A stretch of 64,000 nt of DNA from an uncultured Mucilaginibacter sp. (lineage in GTDB: Bacteria; Bacteroidota; Bacteroidia; Sphingobacteriales; Sphingobacteriaceae): contig NZ_CALMAT010000092.1 of the NCBI RefSeq assembly GCF_937859865.1, positions 46,198 to 110,197 of the forward strand. Direction: 5' to 3'. The notes under the pieces were generated by a model. The model was not told the origin of the DNA. It searched no databases and saw only the letters and a list, made by a program, of their open reading frames with translations. This document shows, piece by piece, positions 283-63,673 of the stretch. Each line of letters begins with the position of its first letter. Positions within the stretch are counted from its first letter, which is position 1. Both the position numbers and the translations under genes were made by a program.

Positions 283-308
283 AATGCTTCTTTTATCCTA
301 TAAAAATT
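283..308 (-). repeat. dispersed ~26-nt motif (DRM), reverse orientation
   Basis: aatgcttcttttatcctataaaaatt; between convergent udk and the tlpA-like gene, abutting the latter's stop. Confidence 0.85.
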
Positions 309-1493
309 CTAAGATTTTTTTAATCTTGTTCTATTCAATCCCATAATTTTTTTGATACTATCAATGCTTACATCCCTGCCAATAAACCTGCCCTCGCTGT
401 TTACTAAATAATTTGACGGGATACTTTTTATAACAAAGTTGAGGATATTTTTCGAGTCCTCCTGTTCCTTCAGTTCACAGATGTTATACCAGGGCAACTG
501 GTCAATTTTTGATGCATGCTGCCACTTTTTTGGGTCCTCGTCAATAGAGACAGATACAATTTCAAGGCCTGATGCTTTGTATTGGTTGTACAACTGTTTA
601 AGCTCCGGCACCTGCTCCCGGCATGGGCCGCAATAGGATGCCCAAAAATCAATCAAAGTTATTTTGTTCTTCTTGTAATCAATGTTTAAAGGGTTGCCGT
701 TTACATCTTTCCCAGAAACAGCAGGGACTTGCGCTCCTACATAAATATTTTTGACTGATTGTAACAGTCCGTCTGCCTCATCGTACTCTTTTGACCTTTT
801 TACTTCCGGGCTTAGTTTGTCTAGTACGTTTTTATATAAGGCGTAATTCTCAAACAGATCAGAAAGCTTGGCGATCAAATAAGGGGTAACAACGGTTTTG
901 GGGTTAGCTTTAATAAATTGCTGGATGGCTGTACGGTAGGAAAGAGAAATTTTATTGTCCATCATAATTATCGTATCGCTATATGCATTATAAAGATGAA
1001 TTTTGTTGCTTGATAGGGCTTTGTCGGCCAGGTTTAAATACAGTTTCTTTTTATAAATTAAAGAATCTCTTATCAGTTGATATAAATTATTGTACTCGTT
1101 TAGTTTTGTTTGGTTATAAGAAGCAGATTGCAATTTGTATCTATTGTGTAACAAAGTTGATGGCCCATTTGCAGCAAACATATAATTTGCATTGTTTTCA
1201 ATATAAATTGGGCAAGGATGCATCCACCCTATCAAATGATTTATTGGTACTGGAAACTTGCAATTAAAATCTAATATATAAAAGCCGTTTTTAGGAACAG
1301 TTCCATGTAGTATAAACTTGTTGTCTTTTACAACAGTCGAATCATAAACCTCTGTATAATTATTGTTTGTTACCCTCACCAAAGTCCCGTTGGCACTATC
1401 CACCATGCCAACAATTGTAACTGTTGCACTTCTCTTACATGACAACAAAGAAATCATCAATGATAATATGATTAAAGTTGGAATTGCTTTCAT
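309..1493 (-). CDS. TlpA/ResA-like thioredoxin-fold thiol:disulfide oxidoreductase lipoprotein
   Basis: C-terminal WASYCGPCREQVPEL CxxC thioredoxin motif and N-terminal signal peptide with LLSC lipobox. The track ORF starts at a TTG (1502); the first ATG (1493) gives MKAIPTLII. Confidence 0.8.
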   Translation of the reverse strand: MKAIPTLIILSLMISLLSCKRSATVTIVGMVDSANGTLVRVTNNNYTEVYDSTVVKDNKFILHGTVPKNGFYILDFNCKFPVPINHLIGWMHPCPIYIENNANYMFAANGPSTLLHNRYKLQSASYNQTKLNEYNNLYQLIRDSLIYKKKLYLNLADKALSSNKIHLYNAYSDTIIMMDNKISLSYRTAIQQFIKANPKTVVTPYLIAKLSDLFENYALYKNVLDKLSPEVKRSKEYDEADGLLQSVKNIYVGAQVPAVSGKDVNGNPLNIDYKKNKITLIDFWASYCGPCREQVPELKQLYNQYKASGLEIVSVSIDEDPKKWQHASKIDQLPWYNICELKEQEDSKNILNFVIKSIPSNYLVNSEGRFIGRDVSIDSIKKIMGLNRTRLKKS

Positions 1494-1671
1494 GACAAAC
1501 AATTAATAAAAATTTTACAAAAACAGATGCAGTCCACACATTACTTTATGCCTTTTATAACTCTACAGTTTTTACAAAGAAAGGCTTATTGTTAAGTTTA
1601 ACAGGTTAAACGAATATACATTTATTGCAAGTTAAAACCTAAAGAATTAGATGCTATAAATCGAAAACAAC

Positions 1672-1697
1672 AATACTTCTTTTACCCCTATAAAATC
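1672..1697 (-). repeat. DRM, reverse orientation
   Basis: aatacttcttttacccctataaaatc; overlaps the stop codon of the gene at 1696. Confidence 0.8.
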
Positions 1698-2760
1698 ATC
1701 CAACCTTGCCCGCATAACAAATTTTGTGGATAAAGCCCAGCTTCTCCATTACGGCGGGTGTAATCACAAAAGGATAAAGATCAATATGCCCCATGCTGCG
1801 GTTGATGCTGTTCATGGCAAAACTCATGGGCAGCCAGGCAGCAATAATGTCGTTAAAATTAGGTGTTTCATAAGGTTCCTGCTTTACGTCCACATCCAAA
1901 TGGTCTTCCGATTTTGCGATTTGCGGATGCACACTTAAACCAAAAGCATAACCGGTTTGCAGTGTATCCATAATATGCAAATAATGCGCCCAGGTTTCGG
2001 CCCAGTCTTCCCAAGCGTGCGAACTGGCGTAAGAACTGATGAAACGGTTGTTCCAATCAGCAGGTGCGCTCTGGTCGTAGTGTTTTTGCAAAGCTTGGCC
2101 GTAATCTTCCCGGTCATCGCCAAACAAATTTCTAAACTCTTCTAAATAAACGGAATTGTCAATCAGCCTGTCCCAATAATAGTGGCCAACCTCATGCCGA
2201 AAATGGCCAATCAAAGTGCGGTAAGGTTCTTTCATGGCTTTACGCGATTTTTCGCGTTCCACGTCATCGGCTTCCACAATATTTAAAGTAATCAAACCAT
2301 TATCGTGCCCGGTTAAAATGCGCGGTTGTCCTTTTAAATCGGCCAGAAAATCAAAAGTCAAGCCTTTTTCCGCGTCTGTATTTTTGCTTATCAAAGGCAG
2401 TTTCATCTTTAATAAACTGTAAACTAAGCGGTGTTTGGCATTTTCGATGAGCAGCCATTGCCGCGCGGCTTCAGGCTTGCTCAAGTTTGGAATGGTGCTG
2501 TTTAAATCACAAGCCTCACAATACGGATTTGGACTGTCGTTTTTAACCAGCCAGTTGCAAACGCCAAACTGGTGGTTTAAGCAATAACGGTAGGTTTGGC
2601 CGGTTTTATCGTAGATGCTGTAAATACCGGTGCTGATGATAACTAAAGGATAAAGCTTTAAATCCTCCGCATCAAACCCCAACGGATAATTACATTGCAC
2701 ACAACTAATGTTTTCAAAATATAAGATTTGTTCGCAATGTGTACACTTAAAAATTTCCAT
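1696..2760 (-). CDS. putative zinc-binding metallopeptidase with N-terminal zinc ribbon
   Basis: N-terminal CxxC pairs (CTHCEQ, CVQCNY) and an HEVGHYYWD HExxH-type motif. Confidence 0.6.
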   Translation of the reverse strand: MEIFKCTHCEQILYFENISCVQCNYPLGFDAEDLKLYPLVIISTGIYSIYDKTGQTYRYCLNHQFGVCNWLVKNDSPNPYCEACDLNSTIPNLSKPEAARQWLLIENAKHRLVYSLLKMKLPLISKNTDAEKGLTFDFLADLKGQPRILTGHDNGLITLNIVEADDVEREKSRKAMKEPYRTLIGHFRHEVGHYYWDRLIDNSVYLEEFRNLFGDDREDYGQALQKHYDQSAPADWNNRFISSYASSHAWEDWAETWAHYLHIMDTLQTGYAFGLSVHPQIAKSEDHLDVDVKQEPYETPNFNDIIAAWLPMSFAMNSINRSMGHIDLYPFVITPAVMEKLGFIHKICYAGKVG

Positions 2761-2843
2761 TTAGTTTAAGCTGATCGTTTTGCTTCTACTAACCTCTTTT
2801 TAAAGTTTTTGATTTAAATAAAATAATCTTTAACTATTTGCTT

Positions 2844-2868
2844 AAAATTAGGTTGTAAAAGAAGTATT
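2844..2868 (+). repeat. DRM, forward orientation
   Basis: aaaattaggttgtaaaagaagtatt; 76 nt upstream of the TonB receptor ATG. Confidence 0.8.
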
Positions 2869-2943
2869 GCCTGCATTTGCCACAACTCCAGCCGTACCTT
2901 TTTAACAGCAAAACCAGTCCGGCAATTTCCTTTTGATAATTCT

Positions 2944-4995
2944 ATGTATAAAAATTTTATCTTTTTTATCCTCACTTTGCTATTTGCGGGTTCGGCTTCG
3001 GCACAAACCGATACTTCCAAAAACTTGCACGAAGTAACCATCAAAGCTTACCTTTCGCAACAACCACTGTTAACCGTTCCGGCAGCCGTTGGAACGCTAA
3101 ACGCGCAGCAATTACAAATGCAGTCCAGCTTTTCTTTAGTCACGGCGATGAATACCATTCCTGGTGTTCGGATGGAAGAACGTTCGCCGGGAAGTTACCG
3201 CTTGTCTATCCGCGGCAGTTTGCTGCGTTCGCCTTTTGGCATTAGAAACGTTAAGGTTTATATGGATGAATTTTCGCTGACTGATGCCGGCGGAAATACC
3301 TATCTCAATTTGCTCGATTTAAATGCCATCCAAAACATCACGGTTTTGCGCGGGCCTGACGGCAGTTTGTATGGCGCAAATTCCGGCGGTGTGGTTTTGA
3401 TTGACCCTTTTGGCGCGCGCCAGCAGCAAAGTACGGCTTCCGTTGGTTTTGATGCCGGATCTTACAACAGCTATCGCGAAAATATAGTGCTAAAAGAAGC
3501 ATCGAAAAATAACCAGCTCAACCTCAGCCAAAGCTGGCAGCATTCGGATGGTTACCGGCAAAACAGCGCGTTGACCCGGAAATTTATCCAGGCTGCTGAT
3601 AACTTTGCTTATTCGGCAAAAGGACAATTGAAAGCTTTGTTGCTTTATTCGGATCTGGATTATCAAACGCCCGGCGGCTTAACGCTTGCCCAATTTCTGC
3701 AAAAACCGGAAGCGGCACGGCCGGCAACGGCAACAATTCCGGGCGTGATAGAACAACATGCAGCCGTTTATAATAAAACTGTTTTTGGCGGAATTTCTAA
3801 CGAGGCTTTTTATCTGCCCAATTTAAAACATGTAGTTTCAGTTTATGGGATGCACACCAATTTTGATAACCCTTATATTACAAATGAGGAAGTTCGGTTG
3901 GAAAACACGGTTGGTTTACGGACTTATTTTGAACTAAGCGGCAAACCAAAAGAGAATTTTGACTGGAAATTTAACCTCGGCACAGAACTGCAGCAAACCC
4001 GATCCAACATCAACAATTACGACAACAATAAAGGGACGCGCGGCAATTTGCAGGCGGCCAGTAATATCCTCACCAAACAGTCTTTTTATTTTTCGCGCTT
4101 TGCAGCTACGCTTCTCAAAAAAATCCATGCCGAAGCAGCATTGAGTTTGAACAATTACCAGTATGATTTTACGGATGTTGGTTCTACCGCAGGCAACAAT
4201 AAATTTAAACCTGTGCTGATGCCGCGGCTGGCTTTATCGTACCAGGTCAGCAATAGTTTTGCCTGGCGCGCAACCGTTAGCCGCGGTTATTCTACACCTT
4301 CTACCGCCGAGGTGAGGCCAACCAGCAACATCATCAACAACAGTTTGCAGGCCGAAAAAGGTTGGAATTACGAGATCGGTTTCCGCAGACAAAACCAAAA
4401 CACGCGTTTTAATTTGGATGCTTCCGTGTTTTATTACCGCTTAAACAATGCCATCGTCCGCCGTTTAAACGATGACGGAACGGAATATTATTTAAATGCT
4501 GGCGGAACCAACCAGCTTGGTTTGGAAGCAAGGACAAGCTATCAGTTTATCCAACCAAACGGAACTGATTTTTTCAGAAGTTTGGAACTGAGCAATAGTT
4601 TGGCTTTGAGCAAGTTCCGCTTTCGGGATTATTTTAATGCAACAAATAATTATTCGGGAAATAAGCTAACAGGCGTACCAAATGTAGTTTCGGTAAGTCA
4701 GCTAACTATTAATTTTCCTGTCAAAATCTATTTCTTCGCGCAATATAACTACACTTCTAAACTTCCTTTAAATGATGAAAATACTGCTTTTGCTAATGCT
4801 TATCATTTAGTGCAATTAAAAACCGGCTGGAACAAAAACCTCAGCCAAAAAACAAGTTTGAATTTATATACCGGCATTGATAATATATTGAACCAGCATT
4901 ACAGTTTGGGCAACGATTTGAACGCTGTTGGAAATAGGTTTTATAATGCTGCGCCTTTGCGCAATTGGTTTGCGGGGGTTAATGTGCAGTTTTAA
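2944..4995 (+). CDS. TonB-dependent outer-membrane receptor
   Basis: Signal peptide, plug-domain motifs (NTIPGVRMEERSPGSYRLSIRG, VLRGPDGSLYGANSGGVV) and a C-terminal beta-barrel ending in aromatic F. Confidence 0.9.
   Translation: MYKNFIFFILTLLFAGSASAQTDTSKNLHEVTIKAYLSQQPLLTVPAAVGTLNAQQLQMQSSFSLVTAMNTIPGVRMEERSPGSYRLSIRGSLLRSPFGIRNVKVYMDEFSLTDAGGNTYLNLLDLNAIQNITVLRGPDGSLYGANSGGVVLIDPFGARQQQSTASVGFDAGSYNSYRENIVLKEASKNNQLNLSQSWQHSDGYRQNSALTRKFIQAADNFAYSAKGQLKALLLYSDLDYQTPGGLTLAQFLQKPEAARPATATIPGVIEQHAAVYNKTVFGGISNEAFYLPNLKHVVSVYGMHTNFDNPYITNEEVRLENTVGLRTYFELSGKPKENFDWKFNLGTELQQTRSNINNYDNNKGTRGNLQAASNILTKQSFYFSRFAATLLKKIHAEAALSLNNYQYDFTDVGSTAGNNKFKPVLMPRLALSYQVSNSFAWRATVSRGYSTPSTAEVRPTSNIINNSLQAEKGWNYEIGFRRQNQNTRFNLDASVFYYRLNNAIVRRLNDDGTEYYLNAGGTNQLGLEARTSYQFIQPNGTDFFRSLELSNSLALSKFRFRDYFNATNNYSGNKLTGVPNVVSVSQLTINFPVKIYFFAQYNYTSKLPLNDENTAFANAYHLVQLKTGWNKNLSQKTSLNLYTGIDNILNQHYSLGNDLNAVGNRFYNAAPLRNWFAGVNVQF
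3481..3504 (+). repeat. DRM core inside a CDS (TonB receptor)
   Basis: aatatagtgctaaaagaagcatcg encodes NIVLKEAS. Its 17 nt tgctaaaagaagcatcg are identical to 57850-57866. Confidence 0.7.
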
Positions 4996-5004
4996 ACAAA
5001 AAAG

Positions 5005-5038
5005 CGATACTGTTTTTATGCCGATAAAAACAGTATCG
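5005..5038. repeat. compact palindromic DRM pair (ACAG variant); hairpin between convergent genes
   Basis: cgatactgtttttat-gccg-ataaaaacagtatcg forms a 15-bp perfect stem. Confidence 0.9.
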
Positions 5039-5063
5039 CGTAATTGAATAAAAGAAGTTTTTC

Positions 5064-5558
5064 TTACTGTTTCACAAAATTATAAACTACGTAACCTGTT
5101 TTCCCGCCGTATTGCACAGGAGATTTTAACGTCATGGTGTTGGCCGTCATGGCAGTAATCAGCAAACGGTAACCATCTTCCACATTTTTTGGCTTGTCTT
5201 TATCAAACAACATTTTAAATTGAAACTCCGGCCCATTGGCACCATTGGCAAACGACCAGAAAATATTTTGCGTAAAACCAACTTGACAGCCGTTTTGCGT
5301 ATTGTTGATCATGAACGAACCGCTCCCGCTGTTGGTCAGTTTCCAGTTGCTGTTTTCAAAGCATTTATAAGGCGCAGTATTGAAAACAGACTGAACGGCA
5401 CCCGGCAGCAACCCTTCTAAAGTAACCGCACTGATTCCCCAATTACCCGAAATATTGCCACGCGAAATAGCATTCGGGTCCTTTTTCAAAGTGGAACAAG
5501 CGGAGAAAATTAAGGCAACCAGCATTACAGTTGCTGTTTTTAAAAAGGTCTTTTTCAT
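5064..5558 (-). CDS. lipocalin-like lipoprotein (hypothetical)
   Basis: MKKTFLKTATVMLVALIFSAC lipoprotein signal from the ATG at 5558. The 22-codon extension in the track ORF covers a repeat copy and is probably not translated. Confidence 0.5.
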   Translation of the reverse strand: MKKTFLKTATVMLVALIFSACSTLKKDPNAISRGNISGNWGISAVTLEGLLPGAVQSVFNTAPYKCFENSNWKLTNSGSGSFMINNTQNGCQVGFTQNIFWSFANGANGPEFQFKMLFDKDKPKNVEDGYRLLITAMTANTMTLKSPVQYGGKTGYVVYNFVKQ

Positions 5559-5593
5559 TTTGATTTTGTTTAGTAAACAGTTAACGCACAACC

Positions 5594-5620
5594 AATTTTT
5601 TTGTTGATAAAAGAAGCATT
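5594..5620 (+). repeat. DRM, forward
   Basis: aatttttttgttgataaaagaagcatt; in the 66-nt gap between the epimerase stop and the lipoprotein start. Confidence 0.8.
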
Positions 5621-5624
5621 GCAA

Positions 5625-6680
5625 TTACTTTTCGTTCCGGACGATCCAGGATTGATAAATCTCTTCAAAAACGGTTTGTAAGGATTTGGTGATTTGCCAG
5701 TTTGGATAATGGGACTTCATCTTCCGCAAATCGCTGTAATAACAAATATGATCGCCGATGCGGTTCGTGTCACTGTAAGTATATTGCATTTGCTTTCCGC
5801 TGATTTCAGAAATCATATCGAAAGCTTCTAAAATAGAACAAGTATTATCTTTTCCGCCGCCTAAATTATACACTTCGGCAATGCGCGGCGCTTTGATAAA
5901 TTCTTCGATAAAACGCGCCACATCATACGAATGGATGTTGTCCCGAACCTGTTTCCCCTTATAACCAAAAACGGTATAAGGCTTTTCTTCCAAATTGCAT
6001 TTGATGAGATAACTTAAAAAGCCGTGCAACTCAACTCCGGTATGGTTTGGCCCGGTCAAGCAACCACCACGCAAACAAGCGGTTGGCATGTTAAAATAAC
6101 GTCCGTATTCCTGCACCGAAATATCTGCCGAAACCTTGGAAGCGCCAAAAAGCGAATGTTTGGTTTGGTCTATGCGAAAATGCTCGGCAATGCCATGTTC
6201 AAAATCCGCGTCGGCATAATCCCAGCGCTTTTCCAGTTCTGTCATTTCGATTTCATTTGGCGCATCGCCATAAACTTTATTGGTGGACATGTGGACGAAC
6301 GGAATTTCGGTATTGTACCTTCTGGTCGCCTCCAACAAATTAAAAGTGCCAACGGCATTCGTGTCAAAATCATCAAACGGGATGGCCGCGGCACGGTCAT
6401 GACTTGGTTGTGCGGCAGTATGCACAATGGCATCTGGTTTAATGGTTTGGATAAGATCAATCACGCCGTTTCGGTTACGGATATCCAATTCGTGGTGGTG
6501 AAAATTGCTGATCTTGCTTCTCAAGCGGCTTTCGTTCCAGCGCGTATCGCCATTGGCGCCAAAAAAAACAGCGCGTTGGTTGTTATCAATGCCATGGATT
6601 TCCCAACCCAAATCTGCAAAATGGAGGCAAACTTCGGAACCAATTAAGCCGGAAGAACCGGTTACCAATAATTTTTTCAT
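5625..6680 (-). CDS. NAD-dependent epimerase/dehydratase (extended SDR, nucleotide-sugar modifying)
   Basis: [17 protein letters not shown] Rossmann motif and YGASKVSAD catalytic YxxxK. Adjacent to a nucleotide-sugar dehydrogenase gene. Confidence 0.85.
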
Positions 6681-6706
6681 TCGATAAGTATCAGCTTTGT
6701 TGTATG

Positions 6707-6723
6707 AAATTTAGCAGTAAAAG
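6707..6723 (+). repeat. truncated DRM (left half only)
   Basis: aaatttagcagtaaaag, then diverges. Confidence 0.4.
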
Positions 6724-6743
6724 GTTTCAGAAAAAACACAGAT

Positions 6744-6770
6744 GTCGTCATGCCGAACTTGTTTCAGTAT
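6744..6770 (+). repeat. GTCATGCCGAACTTGTTTC-family repeat, single arm
   Basis: gtcgtcatgccgaacttgtttcagtat; related to 36218-36246 and 42009-42032. Confidence 0.6.
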
Positions 6771-8095: not shown

Positions 8096-8136
8096 TGATT
8101 TAGACAGATTGGGCAAATATATTAATTTAGGGACGC

Positions 8137-8163
8137 AAAAAATTATGTGGTAAAAACAGTATC
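8137..8163 (+). repeat. DRM, forward (ACAG variant)
   Basis: aaaaaattatgtggtaaaaacagtatc; between kdsD and the sugar dehydrogenase gene. Confidence 0.8.
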
Positions 8164-8174
8164 CGAAGAAAAAA

Positions 8175-9894: not shown

Positions 9895-9960
9895 CGGAAT
9901 AATATTAGAAAAGCCAAAGATAGATTATTGCGGTAAAAGATTCAGTTGGTAGTTTGAGTT

Positions 9961-9985
9961 GATACTTCTTTTATCGGTATAAATT
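9961..9985 (-). repeat. DRM, reverse; left arm of the motif-terminator-motif composite
   Basis: gatacttcttttatcggtataaatt. Confidence 0.9.
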
Positions 9986-9998
9986 ATGTGAAACAAAA

Positions 9999-10026
9999 AA
10001 GCCTCCTGAAACAAATCAGGAGGCTT
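9999..10026 (-). terminator. rho-independent terminator of the symporter gene
   Basis: aagcctcctga-aacaaa-tcaggaggctt; on the minus strand the stem is followed by ttttttg. Confidence 0.8.
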
Positions 10027-10053
10027 AAAATTTATGCCGATAAAAGAAGTATC
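10027..10053 (+). repeat. DRM, forward; right arm of the composite
   Basis: aaaatttatgccgataaaagaagtatc; complementary to 9961-9985 at 24 of 25 positions. Confidence 0.9.
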
Positions 10054-10055
10054 TG

Positions 10056-11900: not shown

Positions 11901-11904
11901 TATA

Positions 11905-11935: not shown

Positions 11936-11955
11936 ATCACTGTTAAAATTTCGTT

Positions 11956-52634: not shown

Positions 52635-52637
52635 CTT

Positions 52638-52663
52638 TATGCTTTTTTTATCGGCACAAAGTT
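52638..52663 (-). repeat. DRM variant immediately upstream of the gap start
   Basis: The gene strand reads aactttgtgccgataaaaaaagcata, then aag ATG. Confidence 0.65.
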
Positions 52664-52684
52664 ATTAAAGATGAAGCAAAAGCG

Positions 52685-53770: not shown

Positions 53771-53823
53771 AACCACATTAATATTTTTTTCAAAGACAAT
53801 AATATTAATTTATAATTAATATT

Positions 53824-54564: not shown

Positions 54565-54645
54565 TTAGCAAAGTATACAAAGAAAAATAATATTGTTAAA
54601 AATATTTGCCATTATAAATTTTAACTAATAGTTTAACCGATATTT

Positions 54646-55413: not shown

Positions 55414-57837
55414 ATGCAGGAAGCCCTCGGCCCAATTTTACAAAAACCGAACGACCGTATCAATTATAACCGGCTGTTCCGTGTTGTTTTAAGCCGATGG
55501 TATTTGGTTGTTTTTGCCGTTTTGCTTTGTTTTGCCCTGGCGCGCTTGTATTTATGGTACACACCGAAGCAATACGCCACGAGCGCGGTGATGAAATTTG
55601 ATGAAAAAAAATCGGAAATTTCTGAATTGGTTAGCGTGATGAACAATGCCGACCGCGCCGCTGCCAAAGTACAAAGCGAAAGTTACGTTATCAAAAGCCG
55701 CGGTTTGATTATTAATGCGGTTAAAGATTTAGATTATAAGGTGAGTTTTTTTATTGCCGGCCGCATCCGCAAGTACGAAACTTATCCCAACAAACCTTTG
55801 GCGGTAGAGATTTTGCAGGAAGACAGCGCCTCGCTTTATAAAGATTTGATCACTTTTCAGGCCATCAACCCAAACAGATTTTTGCTCACTTACAATACTG
55901 AAAATCATGCGGTAAAAACAGTATGTGCTTATAACCAGCCAATCAGCATTGGTAAAACAAGCTTTGTCATCCATCCAAACAACACGCGTTTTGCGGTAAA
56001 TTCGGCTTATCAGTTTAAATTTAATTCGCCCGAAGATTTTTACCCACGCGTTTCTGCCGGTTTAAATGTGAACGAGATCATCAAAAATTCCAACGTAGTT
56101 AGTTTGGAAGAAACCGATCCGAACCCGCAATTTGCCGCCGATATTTTAAATGCTTTGATGAAAGAGTATTTGGATTTTGACAAGAACCGCAAAATGCAAT
56201 CGGCTTCGCAGATCATTAGTTTTATTGACAACCAGTTGGATTACCTTTCCAAACAGGTAAAATCATCCGAAAAATCTTTAGAAAGCTATAAAAAGAGCGC
56301 TAAAGTTTTTGATGTAAGTTCCTCGGCCACAACAATGTTAAGCAAAGTGCAGGAAGTGGAATCACAAAAATCATTGCTCAACATCCAACTGATTGCGATT
56401 GACCAATTGAAGCAGCAAATCAGCAACGAAAAAAATGCGGTCAACTTAAATTTTAACATGCAGGGAACGGTTGACCCGTTGCTGAATGGTTTGCTGCTGC
56501 GCTACAATACTTTACTGACCGAAAAATCAGCTTTGCTAAAAACGTACATCAACAATTCTGAGCCGGTAAACGAAGTAAACCTTCAGTTGGCACAAGTTCG
56601 CAATTCGGCTTTGGCCAATATTGATGCTTCTGTAAAACGCATCGGTTCAACTTTAAATTATTTAAACAACCAGTTGCAAATGGCCAACCAGCAAGTTGCC
56701 GCTTTGCCAACTGCCGAGCGCGACATGGTGAGTTTGAAACGCGATTTCGAGATCAACGAAAAAGTGTATTCCTTTTTGTCGGAAAAGAAGTTGGAAGCGC
56801 AAATCAGCCGTTCTTCAATTTTGGCCGGCGCAACGGTGATCGAACCGGCACAAGCGAACTTTAACCCGGTTTCGCCCGATGCAAGCAGCATCAACCAAAA
56901 AGCAATTTTGCTGGGCTTACTTTTGGGTTTAGGTTTGATTTTGTTGCTGCGGATATTGAACCCGTACATTTATGACAAAGAAACAATTGAAAGCCTGACC
57001 AACGTGCCGGTGATCGGCATGATCCGGAAGTTTCCGTACAAGCTGGACGAGAACAATACACAGATATTATCGCTGGCAAAACCGAAATCTGTTTTTGCCG
57101 AATCGGTTCGTTCCGTTCGTACCAATTTGAGTTTTATGGCTTCCGATAAAGCAAGCAAAGTAATTTGCATTACTTCGGAAGTTGCGGGCGAAGGCAAATC
57201 TTTTATCGCCGTAAATTTGTCAAGCACGTTGGCTTTGATCAACAAAAAAGTAATTTTGATTGCAGCCGATTTACGCCGCTCTAAACTGCATTATGTTTTT
57301 GACCAGGAAAACCACATTGGCTTGAGCAATTACCTGTCCGACCAGGTTAAGCAACAGCAAATCATTTTTAAAACCGCTTACGAAAATATTGACTTTATCC
57401 CTTCCGGCCCTGTCCCGCCAAACCCATCCGAACTATTGCACCACCCGAATATGAACTTGTTGATCGAGAATTTGAAAGTTCATTACGATGTAATTATGAT
57501 TGATACCGCGCCGGTTGGTTTGGTTTCGGATTCGATCCCGGTTATCCGCGGCAGCGACATTAATATTTTTGTGATCCGTGCCGGGAAATCTTCTTTTCAT
57601 GCGGCCGAAATCCCGCAGCAACTGACCGGAAAATATGGATTGAACAACACAGTCATCTTGCTAAATGCTTATTCCGAAGAAAACTTTCATTCCAGGATTT
57701 ACACTTCGGGCAGCAAAAACCAGCAGGGCGGCTATTACTACAACGATTATAATGGTTATGCAAGTTCAGGTTATTACACTGATGACGCGTCGCCCGGCTG
57801 GTGGAAATTGAACCGCTGGATTAAAAAGATCGTTTAA
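55414..57837 (+). CDS. polysaccharide biosynthesis tyrosine autokinase / chain-length determinant (Wzc-like)
   Basis: Wzz domain, P-loop ITSEVAGEGKSFIAVNLS and a Tyr-rich tail GGYYYNDYNGYASSGYY. The ATG abuts the wza stop. Confidence 0.9.
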   Translation: MQEALGPILQKPNDRINYNRLFRVVLSRWYLVVFAVLLCFALARLYLWYTPKQYATSAVMKFDEKKSEISELVSVMNNADRAAAKVQSESYVIKSRGLIINAVKDLDYKVSFFIAGRIRKYETYPNKPLAVEILQEDSASLYKDLITFQAINPNRFLLTYNTENHAVKTVCAYNQPISIGKTSFVIHPNNTRFAVNSAYQFKFNSPEDFYPRVSAGLNVNEIIKNSNVVSLEETDPNPQFAADILNALMKEYLDFDKNRKMQSASQIISFIDNQLDYLSKQVKSSEKSLESYKKSAKVFDVSSSATTMLSKVQEVESQKSLLNIQLIAIDQLKQQISNEKNAVNLNFNMQGTVDPLLNGLLLRYNTLLTEKSALLKTYINNSEPVNEVNLQLAQVRNSALANIDASVKRIGSTLNYLNNQLQMANQQVAALPTAERDMVSLKRDFEINEKVYSFLSEKKLEAQISRSSILAGATVIEPAQANFNPVSPDASSINQKAILLGLLLGLGLILLLRILNPYIYDKETIESLTNVPVIGMIRKFPYKLDENNTQILSLAKPKSVFAESVRSVRTNLSFMASDKASKVICITSEVAGEGKSFIAVNLSSTLALINKKVILIAADLRRSKLHYVFDQENHIGLSNYLSDQVKQQQIIFKTAYENIDFIPSGPVPPNPSELLHHPNMNLLIENLKVHYDVIMIDTAPVGLVSDSIPVIRGSDINIFVIRAGKSSFHAAEIPQQLTGKYGLNNTVILLNAYSEENFHSRIYTSGSKNQQGGYYYNDYNGYASSGYYTDDASPGWWKLNRWIKKIV
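55901..55925 (+). repeat. DRM (ACAG variant) inside the wzc-like CDS
   Basis: aaaatcatgcggtaaaaacagtatg encodes ENHAVKTVC. Confidence 0.65.
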
Positions 57838-57840
57838 TAC

Positions 57841-57867
57841 TAAAAATACTATGCTAAAAGAAGCATC
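57841..57867 (+). repeat. DRM covering the UpxY start codon and first five codons
   Basis: taaaaatactATGctaaaagaagcatc encodes MLKEAS. Confidence 0.7.
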
Positions 57868-58357
57868 GCCAAAATGGTACCCGGTTTATACACATTCGAG
57901 AGCCGAAAAACAGGCTTACGAGTTGCTCCTGCAAAAAGGGGTCGAAGCTTATTTGCCCTTGCAAAAAACGCTGAAACAATGGAGCGACCGCAAAAAATGG
58001 GTAAGCGAACCGCTGTTTAAATCGTACTTGTTTGTGCGCATTTTTCAAAAACAGCAAACCGAGGTTTTGATGACGAAAGGCATTGCGCGTTTCTTGTACC
58101 AATCGGGGAAGATTGCCAATATGCCCGACCAGCAGATCAACGAAATACAAATGCTTTTGTCAACAGAAATGGATTTGGAGGTTACATCCGACCATATTTC
58201 GCCGGGAGAAAAAGTAGTGATCAAAGCCGGTCCGCTGATTGGTTTGACAGGCGAAATGGTAAGTTACAAATCGCAAAAACAGTTAATTATCCGCTTAGAA
58301 AACTTAGGGCAATCCATTTTGGTAAATGCCCACGCTGCTTTGGTAGATAAACTGTAA
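57851..58357 (+). CDS. UpxY-family (NusG-like) transcription antiterminator
   Basis: WYPVYTHSRAEKQAYELL NGN motif and a C-terminal KOW-like GEKVVIKAGPLIGLTGEMV. Confidence 0.8.
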   Translation: MLKEASPKWYPVYTHSRAEKQAYELLLQKGVEAYLPLQKTLKQWSDRKKWVSEPLFKSYLFVRIFQKQQTEVLMTKGIARFLYQSGKIANMPDQQINEIQMLLSTEMDLEVTSDHISPGEKVVIKAGPLIGLTGEMVSYKSQKQLIIRLENLGQSILVNAHAALVDKL

Positions 58358-58447
58358 GCGGTAAAAACAATTTAAAATCAAGCAGTTGCAAAACAAAAAT
58401 GTAACTGACGCGGCGAAGCTGTATCAAAACGGCAAAGCCAAAAAATT

Positions 58448-60229
58448 ATGTGCCGGATAGCTGGTTTAGTTTCTTTAAATATTCATGCCGACGAAAAACG
58501 CAACTTAATTAGCCGGATGTGTTTGGCCATGCAACACGGCGGGCCAGATGGCAAAGGCTTATTTTTAGGTGGTAAAAACAGCATTTGCTTTGGGCACCGA
58601 AGGCTGGCTTTGATTGACCTTTCTGCCGATGCCAACCAGCCGATGACAGATGCAACTGAAAATTATACCATCACTTTTAACGGTGAAATTTATAATTACC
58701 GGGAGCTAAAAATTGAACTGCAAAGTCTGGGTTATCAATTTAAAACACAATCGGACACCGAAGTTATTTTGGCTGCTTATGAAGTTTGGGGCACAAATGC
58801 TTTTCATCGTTTTAACGGCATGTTTGCCTTTGCTTTATTTGATAAACGTTTAAACAAGGTTTTTTTAGTGCGCGACCAAAGCGGTATGAAACCTTTGTAT
58901 TATCAAATTAAAAACAAGGAGCTGCTTTTTGCTTCGGAGATCCGTGCTTTTCGTGCTATTGATATTACCCAAAATCATCCGGATTGGAAAATTTGGCTTT
59001 TAGCTTTTGGCTTTGTCCCGGAACCGATGACGATTTTAAATGATGTATTGATGTTGCCAAAAGGCAGTTTGCTGGAATGGGACATTGTGGCAGAAACTTG
59101 TAAAATCCGCACTTATCTTCAACCCAAAACTTCGCCTTTAATTACAAATTTAGAAGAAGCCAAACAGTTGATCCGACAAAAGTTTCAAGAATCCGTAAAC
59201 CGACATTTAATTGCAGATGCACCCATTGGCGTGTTTTTAAGCGGCGGAATTGATTCGGGCATAGTTGCATTGGAAGCATCCAAGTTTAAAGGTGCCGGTT
59301 TACAAACACTTTCTTTAACGTTTGATGATGCTGGTTTTGATGAATCCAAATTTCAGCAAATCATGGTGAAAAAGTTGGGCAGCAAGCATTCTTCTGAACA
59401 AATTACCGAACAAACTTTTCAAGAACAATCAACTGAGATATTAAAAGCGATGGACCAGCCATCCGCCGATGGAATTAACACTTGGCTGGTTGCCAAATTA
59501 GCAAAGGCACAAGGTTTAAAAGCCGTACTTTCTGGTTTAGGCGGCGATGAATTGTTTGGCGGCTATCCATCATTTAAAAGAATTCGGTTTTTAAAAAAGT
59601 TAAGCCAGTTGTTACCGAAATCCGCTTTAAAATTGTTTCAATATTTGCCAAATGCTAGTTATCAAAAATTAGCTTATTTATCACTTCGATGCCATCTTGG
59701 ATATTATTTGGCTTTGCGTGGTTACTTTGCACCGAAACAAATTGCAGCCATCTTAAATATACCGGTAAAAGAAGTATGGCAAAAAATTTCCCGATTTAAA
59801 CATCTAACAAATCAGGAAAAAAACACTGATCTGTTTACTGCAAATTTGGAACAGGATATTTACATGAAAAACCAGTTGCTGCGCGATGCCGATGCGATGA
59901 GCATGCAGCACGGCATCGAAATTAGGATGCCTTTTTTAGATTATGAATTTTTAATTGGTGTCAATAGCATCCATCCAAACTTACGCTTTGATAAAAAGTT
60001 GGCCAAAGGTTTATTGATCAAAAGTTACCAGGATTTATTGCCTGAAGAAATTTGGAACCGTCAAAAGATGGGCTTTTCTTTTCCGTTGCAAAAATGGCTG
60101 AAAAAATCTGCGTTAACGGATAAGCTTCAAATCAGCAAAAACAAAAGTATTGCTTCTTTTGCACAAGGTTTTTTGGTGGATAAGGTGCATTGGTCTAAAA
60201 TAATTGCTTTGCATTTTGTTGTTAAATAA
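58448..60229 (+). CDS. asparagine synthase (glutamine-hydrolysing) family amidotransferase
   Basis: MCRIAG Ntn-Cys2, GATase-II domain and SGGIDS PP-loop. Confidence 0.9.
   Translation: MCRIAGLVSLNIHADEKRNLISRMCLAMQHGGPDGKGLFLGGKNSICFGHRRLALIDLSADANQPMTDATENYTITFNGEIYNYRELKIELQSLGYQFKTQSDTEVILAAYEVWGTNAFHRFNGMFAFALFDKRLNKVFLVRDQSGMKPLYYQIKNKELLFASEIRAFRAIDITQNHPDWKIWLLAFGFVPEPMTILNDVLMLPKGSLLEWDIVAETCKIRTYLQPKTSPLITNLEEAKQLIRQKFQESVNRHLIADAPIGVFLSGGIDSGIVALEASKFKGAGLQTLSLTFDDAGFDESKFQQIMVKKLGSKHSSEQITEQTFQEQSTEILKAMDQPSADGINTWLVAKLAKAQGLKAVLSGLGGDELFGGYPSFKRIRFLKKLSQLLPKSALKLFQYLPNASYQKLAYLSLRCHLGYYLALRGYFAPKQIAAILNIPVKEVWQKISRFKHLTNQEKNTDLFTANLEQDIYMKNQLLRDADAMSMQHGIEIRMPFLDYEFLIGVNSIHPNLRFDKKLAKGLLIKSYQDLLPEEIWNRQKMGFSFPLQKWLKKSALTDKLQISKNKSIASFAQGFLVDKVHWSKIIALHFVVK
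58561..58586 (+). repeat. full-length DRM (ACAG variant) inside the AsnB-like CDS
   Basis: atttttaggtggtaaaaacagcattt encodes LFLGGKNSI. Compare the intergenic copy at 29185 (aatttttaggcgataaaagaagcatt). Confidence 0.7.
59753..59778 (+). repeat. DRM inside the AsnB-like CDS
   Basis: ttaaatataccggtaaaagaagtatg encodes LNIPVKEVW. Its 19 nt ataccggtaaaagaagtat are identical to the GNAT copy. Confidence 0.75.
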
Positions 60230-60240
60230 CTTCAAAGTAT

Positions 60241-60266
60241 CATGCTTCTTTTATCAACCTTATTTT
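60241..60266 (-). repeat. DRM, reverse
   Basis: catgcttcttttatcaaccttatttt; 12 nt after the AsnB-like stop. Confidence 0.75.
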
Positions 60267-60304
60267 ATGTTTTTATATTTAAATAGTACTATAAAAAATC
60301 CAAT

Positions 60305-61009: not shown

Positions 61010-61845
61010 ATACCTCAATTATATCTGTGATTGTTCCTTGCTATAAACAGGCGCAATATTTACTTGAAGCATTAGAAAGCGTATGGAAACAAACGTACGA
61101 AAACTGGGAATGTATTATCGTTGATGATGGATCACCTGATGACACTGCTGATATTGCATTAAATTTTTGCTTACAAGATAAGCGGTTTAAATATCTTAAA
61201 AAAGAAAACGGTGGCTTATCAAGTGCAAGAAATGCAGGTATAAAAGAAGCATCAGGAGAGTTGATTTTACCTTTAGATGCAGATGATCGTATCCACAAAG
61301 ATTATTTACAACTCGCTATAAGTGCTTTTGGTAAGAATAGTACTTTAGATTTAGTTTACTGCAAAGCTGATTTCTTTGGTGAAAAAACTGGAAAGTGGAA
61401 TTTAGGGCCTTATACTTATGAAAGACTCCTTACCCACAATTCGATATTTTGTAGTGCTATTTTTAAAAAGGAAAATTTTATCAAAGCAAAAGGATATAAT
61501 GAATCACTAAAAAATGGTTGGGAAGATTGGGATCTATGGTTACGAATGTTAAATCCTAATTCCCATGTATTACAACTTTCGGAAATTCTTTTCTTTTATA
61601 GAATTAAAGAGCAATCCATGGTTAAGCGATTAATAAATGGGCAATATCAACAAACAAAATGGGATGTTTTCCTATCCAGTTCCAGCGTATACCGAAACCA
61701 TTTACCACCTCCGATGGATTTGTATTCAGAAGTAAAACTACTCCGCGACAACATCCTATTTTATCAGCAATCTAAAGAATACCGTTTAGGTAGACTATTG
61801 TTTAAACCGTTTCGTCTTTTAAAAAAAATATTTTGGAAACATTAG
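60988..61845 (+). CDS. glycosyltransferase family 2
   Basis: ISVIVPCYKQAQYLLEALESVWKQTYENWECIIVDDGSPDDT and DADD motifs. Confidence 0.85.
   Translation: MAFSQTINTSIISVIVPCYKQAQYLLEALESVWKQTYENWECIIVDDGSPDDTADIALNFCLQDKRFKYLKKENGGLSSARNAGIKEASGELILPLDADDRIHKDYLQLAISAFGKNSTLDLVYCKADFFGEKTGKWNLGPYTYERLLTHNSIFCSAIFKKENFIKAKGYNESLKNGWEDWDLWLRMLNPNSHVLQLSEILFFYRIKEQSMVKRLINGQYQQTKWDVFLSSSSVYRNHLPPPMDLYSEVKLLRDNILFYQQSKEYRLGRLLFKPFRLLKKIFWKH
61231..61253 (+). repeat. DRM core inside a GT2 CDS
   Basis: aatgcaggtataaaagaagcatc encodes NAGIKEAS. Confidence 0.55.
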
Positions 61846-62762
61846 TTTCCATTATTGTCCCCAATTATAACCATTGTTCCTTTTTAAAAGATAGGCTAGA
61901 GTCTATATTAAACCAAACTTATACTAATTTTGAAATTATTATCCTGGATGATGCTTCAACAGACTGTAGTAATGGCTTAATTAGAGCATACCAAACACAT
62001 GTACAAGTTAAGCACGTAGTTTTTAATGAAAAAAATAGTGGAAGCCCATTTTTGCAATGGAAAAAAGGGCTTGAACTTGCAAACGGAAAATATATTTGGA
62101 TTGCAGAAAGCGATGATATTGCCCGGCTTAATTTCTTGGAAACTTTGATCCCTATTTTACAATCAAATCCTCAATTAGTACTTGCTTATACTGATTCTGA
62201 ACGTGAAGAATCTGAATGGAGGAAAATTACGAAGTTTACTCAGCAAAAAATCGAGGTGTTTGAAGGTGAAACATTTGTAAGGCAAAAAATGACAAGCAGT
62301 CCGGCAATCGTTAATGCCAGCGCGGTTGTTTTTAAAAGGGAAACATTACAAGAAGAAATTCTTTCGCAAGCCAATAACTATAAAACTGCCTATGATTGGC
62401 TTTTGTGGTGCAGTATCATATTAAAAGGGAAAGTTGCCTTTTATCCTTTAAAATTGAACTTTTTTAGAAAACATATTAACAGCACTTCTTTAACCTCAAC
62501 GCAGCAAGGGCTTTTTGTAATAGAAGGGCTAAAGGTATTGTCATATTTAAAAAACAATTTCGATATTAACTTAACTTTTTTACAAAAAAAAGGATGGGCA
62601 TCTGTATGGGCACAAACATCATTGCTAACTAATAAAACAAAAAATATATTTTTTAAAAGTTACAGGCATGCGTGGAATATTTCGCCAATCCTTTTTTTCT
62701 ATTTTGCCTACTATTGGCTTAAATACAAGTTTTTTTCTGCCATTAATATTAACCTATACTAG
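61833..62762 (+). CDS. glycosyltransferase family 2
   Basis: VSIIVPNYNHCSFLKDRLESILNQTYTNFEIIILDDASTDCS and ESDD. TTG start at 61833 with no upstream ATG. Confidence 0.8.
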   Translation: METLVSIIVPNYNHCSFLKDRLESILNQTYTNFEIIILDDASTDCSNGLIRAYQTHVQVKHVVFNEKNSGSPFLQWKKGLELANGKYIWIAESDDIARLNFLETLIPILQSNPQLVLAYTDSEREESEWRKITKFTQQKIEVFEGETFVRQKMTSSPAIVNASAVVFKRETLQEEILSQANNYKTAYDWLLWCSIILKGKVAFYPLKLNFFRKHINSTSLTSTQQGLFVIEGLKVLSYLKNNFDINLTFLQKKGWASVWAQTSLLTNKTKNIFFKSYRHAWNISPILFFYFAYYWLKYKFFSAININLY

Positions 62763-62779
62763 TTTAACCAAACAGCAGC

Positions 62780-63673
62780 GTGGCAACAATTTACACAATC
62801 GCAAAAGGTAATTACAAATATGGTGCCTTCGCACTTATTAATTCGTTGCGTGCCTGTGGTATCAACAATTTGGTTATTGTTGGCACTAACGTACATTTAG
62901 CAGAGTTGGAAGGCTTAAAAAATGTAAAACAAGTAATTATAAATTCTACTTGGAACGGAACAAACCTGAAACCTGTTTTGCTGTTATCACAACCATCAGA
63001 GTATTTTATTTATTTTGATGCAGATGTTATCATTTACGATGGCGAATTTATCCGTGAAGTTGAAAAGCGGATTAAGCAAAATAAATTTTTTGGTTGTATT
63101 GATGGGATAGTTGCAGAGCATGAAGTGCGAAGACATTATTGGCAAGAAATTTATCCCTCTAAAAACAGTATTTCAAAACCTACATATTGGTATTATAACG
63201 CCGGCTTTTTTGCCGGATGTATGTCATGTCATAGTTGGATATTAAAAGACTGGAACCAACTCAACTTAGAACATTTAGATTTAGAAGGGTACTTGTTTAG
63301 TAACCCAAAACTACCATTGAGCGACCAGGATACTTTAAATGCAATCTTACAATTTTTGCCAACTGAACAAATGTGTGTTATCGAACTGCCAGATTGGTTT
63401 GGTACCGGTACACAAACAAACCCTTTTTTTCATATCGGCAACTTTCGCCCACAGGCTTTTTTGCATTGTACTGGCCACGAAAAACCTTGGAAATTAGACA
63501 AAGCGCCAGCACGCGCACCAAACACTTATGATGATTTGTGGTATCAATACATCATTAAATCGCCTACTCCGGTTTTCTGTTCTTACCAGCTCTCTTATTT
63601 ACACAAACAATGGTTCAAAAGAAGCATTTTAAGCCGTTTGGTAATCAAACTAAAATCAATCCTTAAAAGATAA
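62780..63673 (+). CDS. putative glycosyltransferase (GT8-like nucleotide-diphospho-sugar transferase fold)
   Basis: YFDADVII DxD-like and YYNAGFFAG motifs. GTG start. Confidence 0.5.
   Translation: MATIYTIAKGNYKYGAFALINSLRACGINNLVIVGTNVHLAELEGLKNVKQVIINSTWNGTNLKPVLLLSQPSEYFIYFDADVIIYDGEFIREVEKRIKQNKFFGCIDGIVAEHEVRRHYWQEIYPSKNSISKPTYWYYNAGFFAGCMSCHSWILKDWNQLNLEHLDLEGYLFSNPKLPLSDQDTLNAILQFLPTEQMCVIELPDWFGTGTQTNPFFHIGNFRPQAFLHCTGHEKPWKLDKAPARAPNTYDDLWYQYIIKSPTPVFCSYQLSYLHKQWFKRSILSRLVIKLKSILKR

Follow-up and report, generated by a model that had tools for sequence, protein, structure and literature searches.

Introduction

The systems that most resemble the repeated word reported here are the DNA uptake sequence (DUS) of the Neisseriaceae and the uptake signal sequence (USS) of the Pasteurellaceae. 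To our knowledge, genome words of the uptake-signal type have been established in these two proteobacterial families only, and both their receptors and the evolutionary drive behind them are still debated. DUS and USS are characterized by their density, balanced orientation, location at poorly conserved residues, absence from genes without homologues and inverted pairs, and in three species 65%, 49% and 34.5% of the sites lie in coding sequences (CDSs) (PMC2817400, PMC2397512), the last value being that of the N. meningitidis DUS (PMC2817400). In the Bacteroidota, a preference for own DNA was reported for Riemerella columbina, in which no signal has been identified yet (PMC7965970). We describe here a word of ∼28 bp, built on a 12-bp core, that is scattered over a 64-kb stretch of DNA from an uncultured Mucilaginibacter sp. 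(contig NZ_CALMAT010000092.1, positions 46,198 to 110,197; hereafter the window, with its first nucleotide as position 1) and over the genomes of its relatives. It is an orientation-free word of double-stranded DNA that is gained by point substitution, is kept above background, belongs to one clade and has no tie to a transposase.

Like DUS and USS, the Mucilaginibacter word occurs about once per kb, equally in both orientations, with many copies in genes, in several reading frames and without indels; it is common to related species and absent from outgroups, its orthologous copies are conserved, and its inverted pairs at gene ends form hairpins. As in USS, the core is combined with a flanking A/T tract. 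It differs from both in its unrelated sequence, in its presence in the Bacteroidota, in a 28-bp unit with a 12-bp core and an internal variable spacer, in its two coupled core forms per genome and in its doublets with a preferred spacing of ∼82 nt. Overall, the pattern is a USS/DUS-like evolutionary signature with an unrelated sequence in a new phylum, with a longer bipartite unit, two core forms and doublets that resemble REPINs.

Other families of repeats share part of these traits. The repetitive extragenic palindromes (REPs), and the bacterial interspersed mosaic elements (BIMEs) and REP doublets forming hairpins (REPINs), are also short dispersed repeats, dense in intergenic DNA, with inverted doublets, discrete spacings, hairpin potential and agreeing arms; unlike them, the word has one third of its copies in CDSs, where they arose by substitution, its single units are non-palindromic, most of its doublet interiors are unrelated, and the REP-associated tyrosine transposase (RAYT) of the clade has its own, different REP. 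The miniature inverted-repeat transposable elements found in genes, such as the Neisseria Correia elements and the Rickettsia palindromic elements, are likewise short, bounded by inverted repeats and sometimes located within open reading frames (ORFs), but they are 100-150-bp insertions with conserved interiors that add residues, whereas copies of the word deep in CDSs add no length, its doublet interiors are mostly unique, and nothing is conserved outside positions -15 to +13 relative to the core. HIP1 (GCGATCGC) of cyanobacteria is hyper-abundant in coding and non-coding DNA, made and kept through substitution, not insertion, and shared within lineages, and its function is not known; its 8 bp form a perfect palindrome tied to a methyltransferase site, whereas the present word is asymmetric, bipartite and 28 bp long. 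Finally, Chi and the FtsK-orienting polar sequences (KOPS) are words over-represented along the whole chromosome, also in genes, and kept by selection on their density, but they are 5-8 bp long with a strong leading-strand skew, whereas the 28-bp word has no skew.

Results

A 12-bp core recurs about once per kb in the window

The window (41% G+C) is part of a 112.5-kb metagenome contig (ERZ22826848 NODE_101). In it the degenerate core TAAAARMAGYAT had 63 matches, 33 on the plus strand and 30 on the minus strand, from position 284 to position 63171. Dinucleotide shuffles of the same DNA gave 0.34 ± 0.52 matches, with a maximum of 2. As exact 12-mers on both strands, TAAAAGAAGCAT was found 30 times, TAAAAGAAGTAT and TAAAAACAGTAT 13 times each and TAAAAACAGCAT 5 times, and the order-3 Markov expectation was 0.05-0.10 per 12-mer. 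Chance or base composition as the cause of the abundance was ruled out by the shuffles and the Markov expectations. A first-pass annotation of the window, made from the letters, had tallied at least 28, 13, 10 and 5 copies of these 12-mers against fewer than 0.1 expected, in roughly balanced orientations, and had described an AT-rich left part followed by a variable stretch and the core; the exact counts equal or slightly exceed its tally, and the rest of this description stands.

The anatomy of the unit was derived from copies aligned on the core, 63 from the window and then 776 from the clade. A position matrix confirmed an extended unit of ∼28 bp, in which C-n-R-A-W-T-T-T-W is followed by a variable, G/C-rich spacer with G-R at its end and then by the 12-bp core. 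Numbered from the core, position -15 is C, -13 to -7 hold the A/T tract R-A-W-T-T-T-W, the next two positions are free, -4 to -1 read S-S-G-R (G at -2 in 73-79% of copies), and Y occupies +12, after the core. In the 776 clade copies the signal spanned -15 to +13 only and nothing was conserved beyond, therefore no larger element is hidden around the copies, and a longer mobile element surrounding each of them was ruled out. Seeding on the flank alone returned the same four cores (184, 30, 27 and 18 copies), hence the unit is truly bipartite. Core positions 5 and 6 were coupled in the clade copies (GA 530, AC 206, AA 28 and GC 17), so that the core exists in two discrete forms, GAAG and ACAG, and not as two loose positions. 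A single unit is no real palindrome, its complementarity being limited to TTTWA/TAAAA (3-5 A-T pairs) and to the C at -15 with the G at +8; true palindromes were seen only at overlaps of two units.

A promoter or start-codon signal was considered and ruled out: G at +12 was present in 19% of copies against a background of 20.5%, although several cores end in ...ATG. A sigma-70 scan was at chance level, and the -33/-7 promoter consensus of the Bacteroidota does not match the word.

The word is genome-wide in one clade

Genomes were surveyed by an exact-pattern scan with one genome per species, which gave at least 105 tiles of 8 kb and a taxonomic range that is a lower bound. Among the matches listed, all multi-match tiles came from Mucilaginibacter/Sphingobacteriaceae assemblies or from three metagenome-assembled genomes (MAGs) labelled Janthinobacterium lividum, and four single matches in unrelated taxa were at chance level. 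The carriers listed include the isolate M. arboris HMF7410, the complete 3.7-Mb MAG NZ_OZ241747.1, and lichen and other MAGs. In at least 11 species genomes the core density was 0.72-0.98 per kb, and both core forms were present in each. A clade sample of 846 kb, made of 8-kb tiles chosen for containing the motif, held 736 perfect and 380 one-mismatch cores, where a composition-based estimate of chance gives roughly 1 and 40, respectively. By extrapolation, a 3.7-Mb genome would carry roughly 3,000-3,500 copies.

Five further loci were fetched via a protein and are hence unbiased for the motif. Two of them, L107 and L109, belong to the motif-bearing clade and carried 18 and 22 cores, respectively, in 21.9 kb each (0.82-1.0 per kb), and L111, from a more divergent lineage with 35.7% G+C, had 7 cores in 14.4 kb. 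No core was present in the 21.9 kb of syntenic DNA of the outgroup M. frigoritolerans (L110), nor in the 21.9 kb of a second outgroup (L112), and no other hyper-abundant k-mer was found in these two outgroup loci. The first-pass annotation had allowed for an enrichment local to the window and had proposed to look at relatives; the enrichment is genome-wide across the whole clade, at least 11 species genomes share it, and the syntenic DNA of M. frigoritolerans lacks it.

Over 102 tiles, 362 copies were on the plus strand and 390 on the minus strand (p = 0.32), and orientation did not correlate with GC skew (r = 0.003); a role like that of Chi or KOPS is therefore excluded. Around position 23700 of the window, genes change from mostly minus-strand to mostly plus-strand and the cumulative GC skew has its minimum, at divergent photolyase and SDR genes; the orientation of the motif does not change there. 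Site clusters in the window were more evenly spaced than random ones (coefficient of variation 0.63 versus 0.97).

The MAGs labelled J. lividum (JBPBQN01, JBPBPL01 and JBPBQV01; e.g., L011, L012 and L020) are 38-41% G+C, their motif density is 0.74-0.80 per kb, and the S15 peptidase P0019 of at least one of them is 87% identical to that of the window. Judged by these features, the three must be mislabelled Sphingobacteriaceae/Mucilaginibacter genomes. Carriage by phages was considered as well: two scans of IMG/VR gave single matches per contig only, consistent with chance, the pattern of the first scan being too loose to inform. A full-text search of the available literature returned no earlier description of the word or of such a repeat in Mucilaginibacter.

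Copies within genes arose by point substitution

The S15 peptidase gene of the window (46272-48128, minus strand) holds three copies of the unit, and an alignment of the protein with 14 homologues revealed no insertion of motif length. Where motif-bearers have NTSFTG outgroups have NNKWTG, where they have NASF outgroups have xxTF, and MLLLCLFF replaces other signal-peptide residues; all three copies fall at residues that are variable among outgroups, and at the copy at 46589-46616 the protein has the same length as in outgroups, except for one outgroup with a 1-codon deletion. The proposal of the first-pass annotation, that orthologous proteins of motif-free relatives be compared at the embedded sites, is answered here by residues that differ with no insertion of motif length. 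The copy in the UDP-sugar dehydrogenase gene (7740-7767) lies in a region that aligns without gaps to PDB 4r16.

Positions 45601-60300 of the window were then aligned at the DNA level with L107, L109 and the outgroup L110. About seven sites were common to the three motif-bearing genomes at orthologous positions, and at the six deep-CDS sites that could be aligned to the outgroup the gap was 0-3 nt. Copies specific to one lineage showed graded point-mutation intermediates. The best case is the site at 50908-50935, which reads AAATTTATTACCGGTGATGATGTGCTG in the outgroup, AAATTTATTACTGCCGAAGACATATTG in L109, GGATTTGTTGCGGTAGAAGAAATATTA in L107 and AAATTTATACCGGTAAAAGAAGTATTG in the window. Similarly, the copy in the 5′ untranslated region of the GAPDH gene (52638-52665) arose in place, as judged against L107, L109 and L111. 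Although the three motif-bearing genomes are only ∼74-76% identical to one another in this region, cores were 82-86% identical between species and the surrounding 60 nt 66-71%. These alignments indicate that the deep-CDS copies are substitutions and not insertions. For intergenic copies in general, insertion and divergence are not separable because outgroup spacers do not align; the summed spacers of four conserved gene pairs measure 273-331 nt in the motif genomes versus 428 nt in the outgroup, and hence are not expanded.

Two stretches of the motif-selected tiles are the longest without the motif. Both have low G+C, and one carries KilA-N and IS1595 genes and the other an AIPR abortive-infection gene. 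The interval between the phosphoglycerate kinase (PGK) and S15 peptidase genes is a site of variable cassettes (window 48144-48853; L107:7592-9903; L109:9015-9970; L111:6780-9967), with a nucleotidyltransferase/NTase-substrate-binding pair in the window, an S41 peptidase gene and a PIN pair in L107, and three further genes in L111. Conserved motif copies flank this site on both sides, and the cassettes, of variable toxin-antitoxin type, hold few or none. The scarcity of the motif in these cassettes and in the two longest motif-free stretches is anecdotal and suggestive at most. An ORF of 120-129 amino acids with no Pfam match occupies the interval between the GAPDH and acetyltransferase genes in all motif-bearing genomes examined (window 51162-51524, plus strand; L107:5215-5604; L109:6533-6922; L111:4237-4608) and is absent from this position in both outgroups; nothing ties it to the motif.

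Placement of the copies relative to genes

On our own gene map of the window, 20 of the 63 units lie fully in a CDS, 11 extend across a gene end and the other 32 fall between genes. With database gene calls, available for 67 kb of the window contig and two relatives, the numbers were 21, 10 and 33, respectively, corresponding to 0.34 copies per kb in coding DNA and 5.5 per kb in spacers. In the clade sample, where CDS assignment was by long ORFs only, 109 copies deep in ORFs were in sense and 81 in antisense orientation, in five frame/orientation classes, and the encoded peptides were (V/I)K(E/T)AS, xK(R/N)SI, xA(S/V)F(T/I) or (M/I)LLL. A motif at the protein level was ruled out by these five classes. 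As the CDS copies use several frames and orientations and retain the DNA flank consensus, the signal sits in the DNA and not in protein or RNA. The first-pass annotation had placed about one third of the copies in CDSs in several frames and the remainder at gene boundaries, often as hairpin-forming inverted pairs; both statements agree with our map, on which several such pairs are located, and all the sequence-level traits that it had tied to USS and DUS hold. The genes of the window have good Pfam support and are of common housekeeping and accessory kinds. No competence machinery or word-specific receptor was found among the annotated genes of the window, and no Rfam family above its gathering score, tRNA gene or tmRNA gene was found in the window.

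Units with core TAAAAGAAGCAT are read in sense in the genes of a TonB-dependent receptor (3476-3503, plus strand), the UDP-sugar dehydrogenase (7740-7767, minus; encoding RLIKEAS), a 2-oxoacid dehydrogenase E2 (13280-13307, minus), a photolyase-related protein (DPRP; 18541-18568, minus), a gamma-glutamyltranspeptidase (45484-45511, minus; codons 4-12, in the N-terminal signal region) and a glycosyltransferase-2 (61226-61253, plus). The same core is antisense in the first codons of, or just upstream of, a hypothetical gene (5593-5620, plus; gene at 5064-5624, minus), in a SIS-CBS isomerase gene (8456-8483, plus) and twice in the S15 peptidase gene (46856-46883, plus, encoding NASF; 48084-48111, plus, at the signal-peptide codons for MLLLCLFF), the third copy of which, also antisense, has core TAAAAGAAGTAT (46589-46616, plus; NTSFTG). 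Core TAAAAGAAGTAT was further found in acetyltransferase codons 2-10 (50908-50935, minus; specific to the window lineage), in the last GAPDH codons (51634-51661, minus, sense; conserved in L107 and L109) and in asparagine synthase coding sequence (59751-59778, plus, sense), as is a unit with core TAAAAACAGCAT (58558-58585, plus, sense) that shows no indel relative to the outgroup. Core TAAAAACAGTAT is antisense in the genes of an RND membrane-fusion protein (31442-31469, minus; 26 nt from the start), a photolyase (40936-40963, minus) and, in its N-terminal codons, a polysaccharide-export protein (54678-54705, minus; the orthologous copies of L107 and L109 have the GAAG core), and it is in sense in the genes of a Wzz/tyrosine kinase (55898-55925, plus; lineage-specific, with no indel relative to relatives) and a glycosyltransferase-8 (63145-63172, plus).

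Gene ends are overlapped by units at 283-310 (minus, TAAAAGAAGCAT; end of a thioredoxin-like gene, 309-1502, minus) and 1672-1699 (minus, TAAAAGAAGTAT; end of a Zn metallopeptidase gene, 1696-2760, minus), as well as by the second of two direct units at 42092-42163 (minus; cores at 42093 and 42137, both TAAAAGAAGCAT), which covers the stop of an FKBP gene. At gene starts, the last two bases of the unit at 23933-23960 (plus, TAAAAGAAGTAT) form with a G the ATG of the SDR gene, the unit at 25440-25467 (minus, TAAAAGAAGTAT) lies in antisense directly next to the start codon of a TetR-like gene, those at 26888-26915 (plus, TAAAAACAGCAT) and 57840-57867 (plus, TAAAAGAAGCAT) overlap the starts of an ABC1 kinase gene (at its start codon) and of a NusG-like gene, respectively, and a unit with the variant core TAAAAAAAGCAT (40638-40665, plus) lies across the overlap of an epimerase stop and a photolyase start. 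The same variant is found in the unit of the GAPDH 5′ untranslated region (52638-52665, minus).

Single intergenic units with core TAAAAGAAGCAT were located at 11873-11900 (plus), 16601-16628 (minus), 19435-19462 (plus), 25325-25352 (minus; a stop codon 8 nt before), 29183-29210 (plus), 39660-39687 (plus) and 60241-60268 (minus). Those with core TAAAAGAAGTAT are at 2841-2868 (plus; upstream of the TonB receptor gene), 36133-36160 (plus; 2 nt past the stop of an RND pump gene) and 41966-41993 (minus; between convergent genes), and those with core TAAAAACAGTAT at 8136-8163 (plus), 28238-28265 (plus; a stop codon 3 nt before) and 43713-43740 (minus).

Inverted pairs

Among neighbouring copies within 200 nt of each other in the clade sample, 96 pairs were -+, 43 +-, 32 -- and 24 ++, that is, 139 inverted against 56 direct. 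The interiors of 53 of 63 doublets were unique, and the others formed four small families, two of which had no flank-similar members. In orthologous doublets of L107 and L109 the arms were kept and the interiors had visibly diverged. The arms of a doublet agreed slightly in their spacer bases (0.40 versus 0.325, p = 0.004). The short classes of -+ spacing step by 14 nt (18, 32 and 46), as expected of pairs whose cores overlap, that share an A/T tract or whose units abut, and +- pairs have a recurrent 10-nt spacing (GCATGC junction); no obvious structural explanation was found for a mode at 82 nt.

Several inverted pairs of the window fold into hairpins, for example 5007-5036, 9962-10052, 46200-46238, 49181-49210 and 50476-50505. 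Three of these are two overlapping units: a perfect palindrome followed by a T-run between convergent genes (5006-5037; cores TAAAAACAGTAT at 5007, minus, and 5025, plus), a palindrome right after the PGK stop that is conserved in L107 and L109 (49180-49211; cores at 49181, minus, and 49199, plus), and a palindrome right after the acetyltransferase stop (50475-50506; cores at 50476, minus, and 50494, plus). The pair at 9961-10053 (cores at 9962, minus, and 10041, plus, both TAAAAGAAGTAT) encloses a G+C-rich, terminator-like hairpin (9999-10026) and folds at -46.6 kcal/mol, and the one at 46185-46253, with inward-facing cores at 46200 (plus) and 46227 (minus), makes a hairpin with a 13-bp stem between convergent genes. 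Motif pairs are found at the two best terminator-like sites of positions 1-20000. As a general function of doublet interiors, termination was rejected, a minority of 13-19% being strongly structured. Further inverted pairs are at 36255-36330 (cores 36256, minus, TAAAAGAAGTAT, and 36318, plus, TAAAAACAGTAT; around a G+C-rich hairpin between convergent genes), at 38723-38803 (38724, minus, and 38791, plus; spacing 67, intergenic) and at 50974-51082 (50975, minus, TAAAAACAGCAT, and 51070, plus, TAAAAGAAGCAT; intergenic and conserved in relatives).

Two doublets of ∼94 nt lie 3.5 kb apart, one upstream of a TetR gene (29043-29138; cores at 29044, minus, and 29126, plus, spacing 82) and one upstream of the RND pump gene (32552-32646; cores at 32553, minus, and 32634, plus, spacing 81). 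Their interiors are homologous, and since their flanks are also similar they may represent a local duplication or a shared regulatory module. A second word, AATTTAAACAGGC, is present in four copies (0.52 expected), at 19481-19493, 29011-29023 (minus), 29156-29168 and 32663-32675. All four are found 18-21 nt downstream of a motif core, as with the unit at 19435-19462 (20 nt), three around the TetR/RND efflux genes and one downstream of a pirin gene, and the word could represent an extended sub-family of the repeat or a site similar to an operator. A small palindromic repeat, GTCATGCCGAAACAAGTTCGGCATGAC, forms a G+C-rich hairpin beside motif copies between convergent genes at 36219-36245 and 42009-42030, and its half-word TGTCATGCCG is also present at loci in two further genomes of the clade.

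The RAYT of the clade has its own REP

RAYT genes were searched for by tblastn with RAYT and IS200 sequences as bait. The bait gave one weak match, which was confirmed as a Y1 transposase (Pfam PF01797, E = 3e-9; NCBI name REP-associated tyrosine transposase). The gene is present in three motif-bearing genomes (L004:1589-2125, M. arboris NZ_WPIK01000009; L251:3001-3546; L252:3001-3546), with 85-89% identity among them, and the family was also found in Pedobacter, other Mucilaginibacter and Chitinophagales. In all three genomes both flanks of the gene carry a different hairpin, CGGGATTnnnnAATCCCG, and not the 28-bp word, and no RAYT flanked by the word was found with this search. The REP hairpin that flanks the gene reads CTGGTCGGGATTTGYAATCCCGATC. 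Within the clade sample the CGGGATTnnnnAATCCCG hairpin was found only beside the RAYT of L004, therefore it is a very small REP family that coexists with the hyper-abundant motif. The RAYT as mobiliser of the word was ruled out by its flanks, which bear this other REP.

Discussion

The alignments argue against transposition as the way in which the word has spread, and we infer that it has a sequence-specific protein reader that gives motif-bearing DNA an advantage in transmission or fitness. Our tentative reading, by analogy with DUS and USS, places this reader in DNA uptake. A putative receptor for the word would have been acquired by the ancestor of the M. arboris clade, and as a DNA-binding part of the transformation machinery, at the cell surface or in the periplasm, it would prefer word-bearing fragments. 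Mutations toward the word would then reach other cells by recombination at a higher rate than those leading away from it, and the word would climb to ∼1 per kb wherever coding constraint permits, with inverted pairs at gene ends retained for the hairpins that they make as well, some of which are terminator-like. The fraction of units in CDSs, 32-33%, may be compared with the 34.5% of the N. meningitidis DUS (PMC2817400). If this reading is correct, which we hold with somewhat less than even confidence, the clade would have an independently evolved DNA-uptake specificity, with a 28-bp bipartite word and two core forms, and the first uptake-signal family outside the Neisseriaceae and Pasteurellaceae.

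Several observations weigh against an uptake signal. The cores of known uptake signals measure 9-12 bp, with a single dominant form in each species, and here the GAAG and ACAG forms coexist in every motif-bearing genome. The spacings of -+ pairs cluster at 18 nt (overlapping palindromes), at 32 nt and at 45-47 nt, with a further, broad peak whose mode is 82 nt, and the two arms of a doublet agree in core form more often than background (0.886 versus 0.589); this doublet organisation resembles that of REPINs and BIMEs and would not be predicted by an uptake model, nor would the sharing of interiors by a few doublets at apparently non-orthologous sites. Strong hairpins are present in only 13-19% of doublet interiors. 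The even spacing of the sites could reflect just gene lengths, the case for depletion in foreign DNA rests on two stretches from motif-selected tiles, and no depletion is seen in the glycosyltransferase region of low G+C at 60-64 kb, which has 3 copies.

The reader might instead be intracellular. In this rather unlikely but serious case the copies would be densely arrayed sites for an abundant DNA-binding protein that the clade ancestor acquired, with selection on site density and sites arising by substitution wherever tolerated, and the protein could serve in nucleoid organisation, in supercoiling or gyrase binding, in repair or recombination, or in marking self-DNA for a defence or recombination nuclease. 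The substitution origin, the conservation of cores, the use of both orientations, the CDS copies and the restriction to one clade would be explained equally well, a bipartite layout with a variable spacer resembles a protein footprint of ∼2.7 helical turns, and the pair spacings of 18, 32, 46 and ∼82 nt, with the agreement of the arms, would suit a multimeric protein on two units. However, selection on thousands of individually dispensable sites is weak, and a transmission drive explains their accumulation more easily; Chi and KOPS, the known density-dependent words, are short and strand-polarised, a polarity absent here; and we know of no nucleoid or repair protein with a 28-bp word at 1 per kb, including ∼0.35 per kb in genes. 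A drive that spreads the motif with neither uptake nor transposition, e.g., protein-directed biased repair or gene conversion, seems distinctly improbable.

In a REP/BIME/REPIN-like origin, the units would be the ends of small hairpin doublets copied in trans by a RAYT-type or other transposase, and CDS copies would be secondary. The excess of inverted pairs within 200 nt, the sharply preferred -+ spacings, the arms that agree in core form and slightly in spacer bases, the four small families with shared interiors, two of them in dissimilar flanks, and the presence of a RAYT gene in the clade all speak for it, and the REPINs of Pseudomonas fluorescens SBW25 show similar spacing peaks, at 71 and 110 bp (PMC3116915). 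Yet 32-33% of the units lie in CDSs versus 14 of 1,067 REPs in SBW25 (PMC3116915), the deep-CDS copies are substitutions with a 0-3 nt gap, lineage-specific copies come with graded intermediates, and a single unit has only 3-5 A-T pairs. The RAYT of three motif-bearing genomes is flanked by CGGGATTnnnnAATCCCG, and its family extends to Pedobacter and other Mucilaginibacter; most doublet interiors are unique and diverge while orthologous arms are kept, and intergenic spacers are not expanded relative to the outgroup. These sequence data weaken the REP/RAYT alternative of the first-pass annotation, and we consider such an origin improbable. Least credible of all is a function in RNA, whether as terminator, as a hairpin that stabilises mRNA or as the target of an RNA-binding protein, with the abundance in DNA as a by-product. 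Many copies do lie within a few nt of stop codons, and pairs such as that at 9962-10052 fold stably and coincide with the best terminator-like sites, but CDS copies occur in both orientations to transcription (109 sense, 81 antisense), single units have no stable fold and few doublet interiors are structured, and ∼0.35 copies per kb inside genes are left unexplained.

If the reader is not an uptake receptor, a 28-bp word kept at ∼1 per kb would still be notable, and we know of no precedent for it among chromosomal binding sites. Whatever the reader, the word can be used as a sequence marker for binning MAGs of the clade or detecting mislabelled ones. If the word is read in DNA uptake, as we tentatively propose, it would be a third, unrelated case of an uptake-signal-type word, in another phylum and in a young clade that has motif-free sister species and a cultured type strain, M. 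arboris HMF7410. Open to test would then be the origin of such a signal, the gene gain behind its specificity and the extent to which the drive reshapes proteins, with (V/I)K(E/T)AS and xASF(T/I) visibly written into enzymes, and it would offer a handle for the genetic manipulation of the Sphingobacteriaceae.

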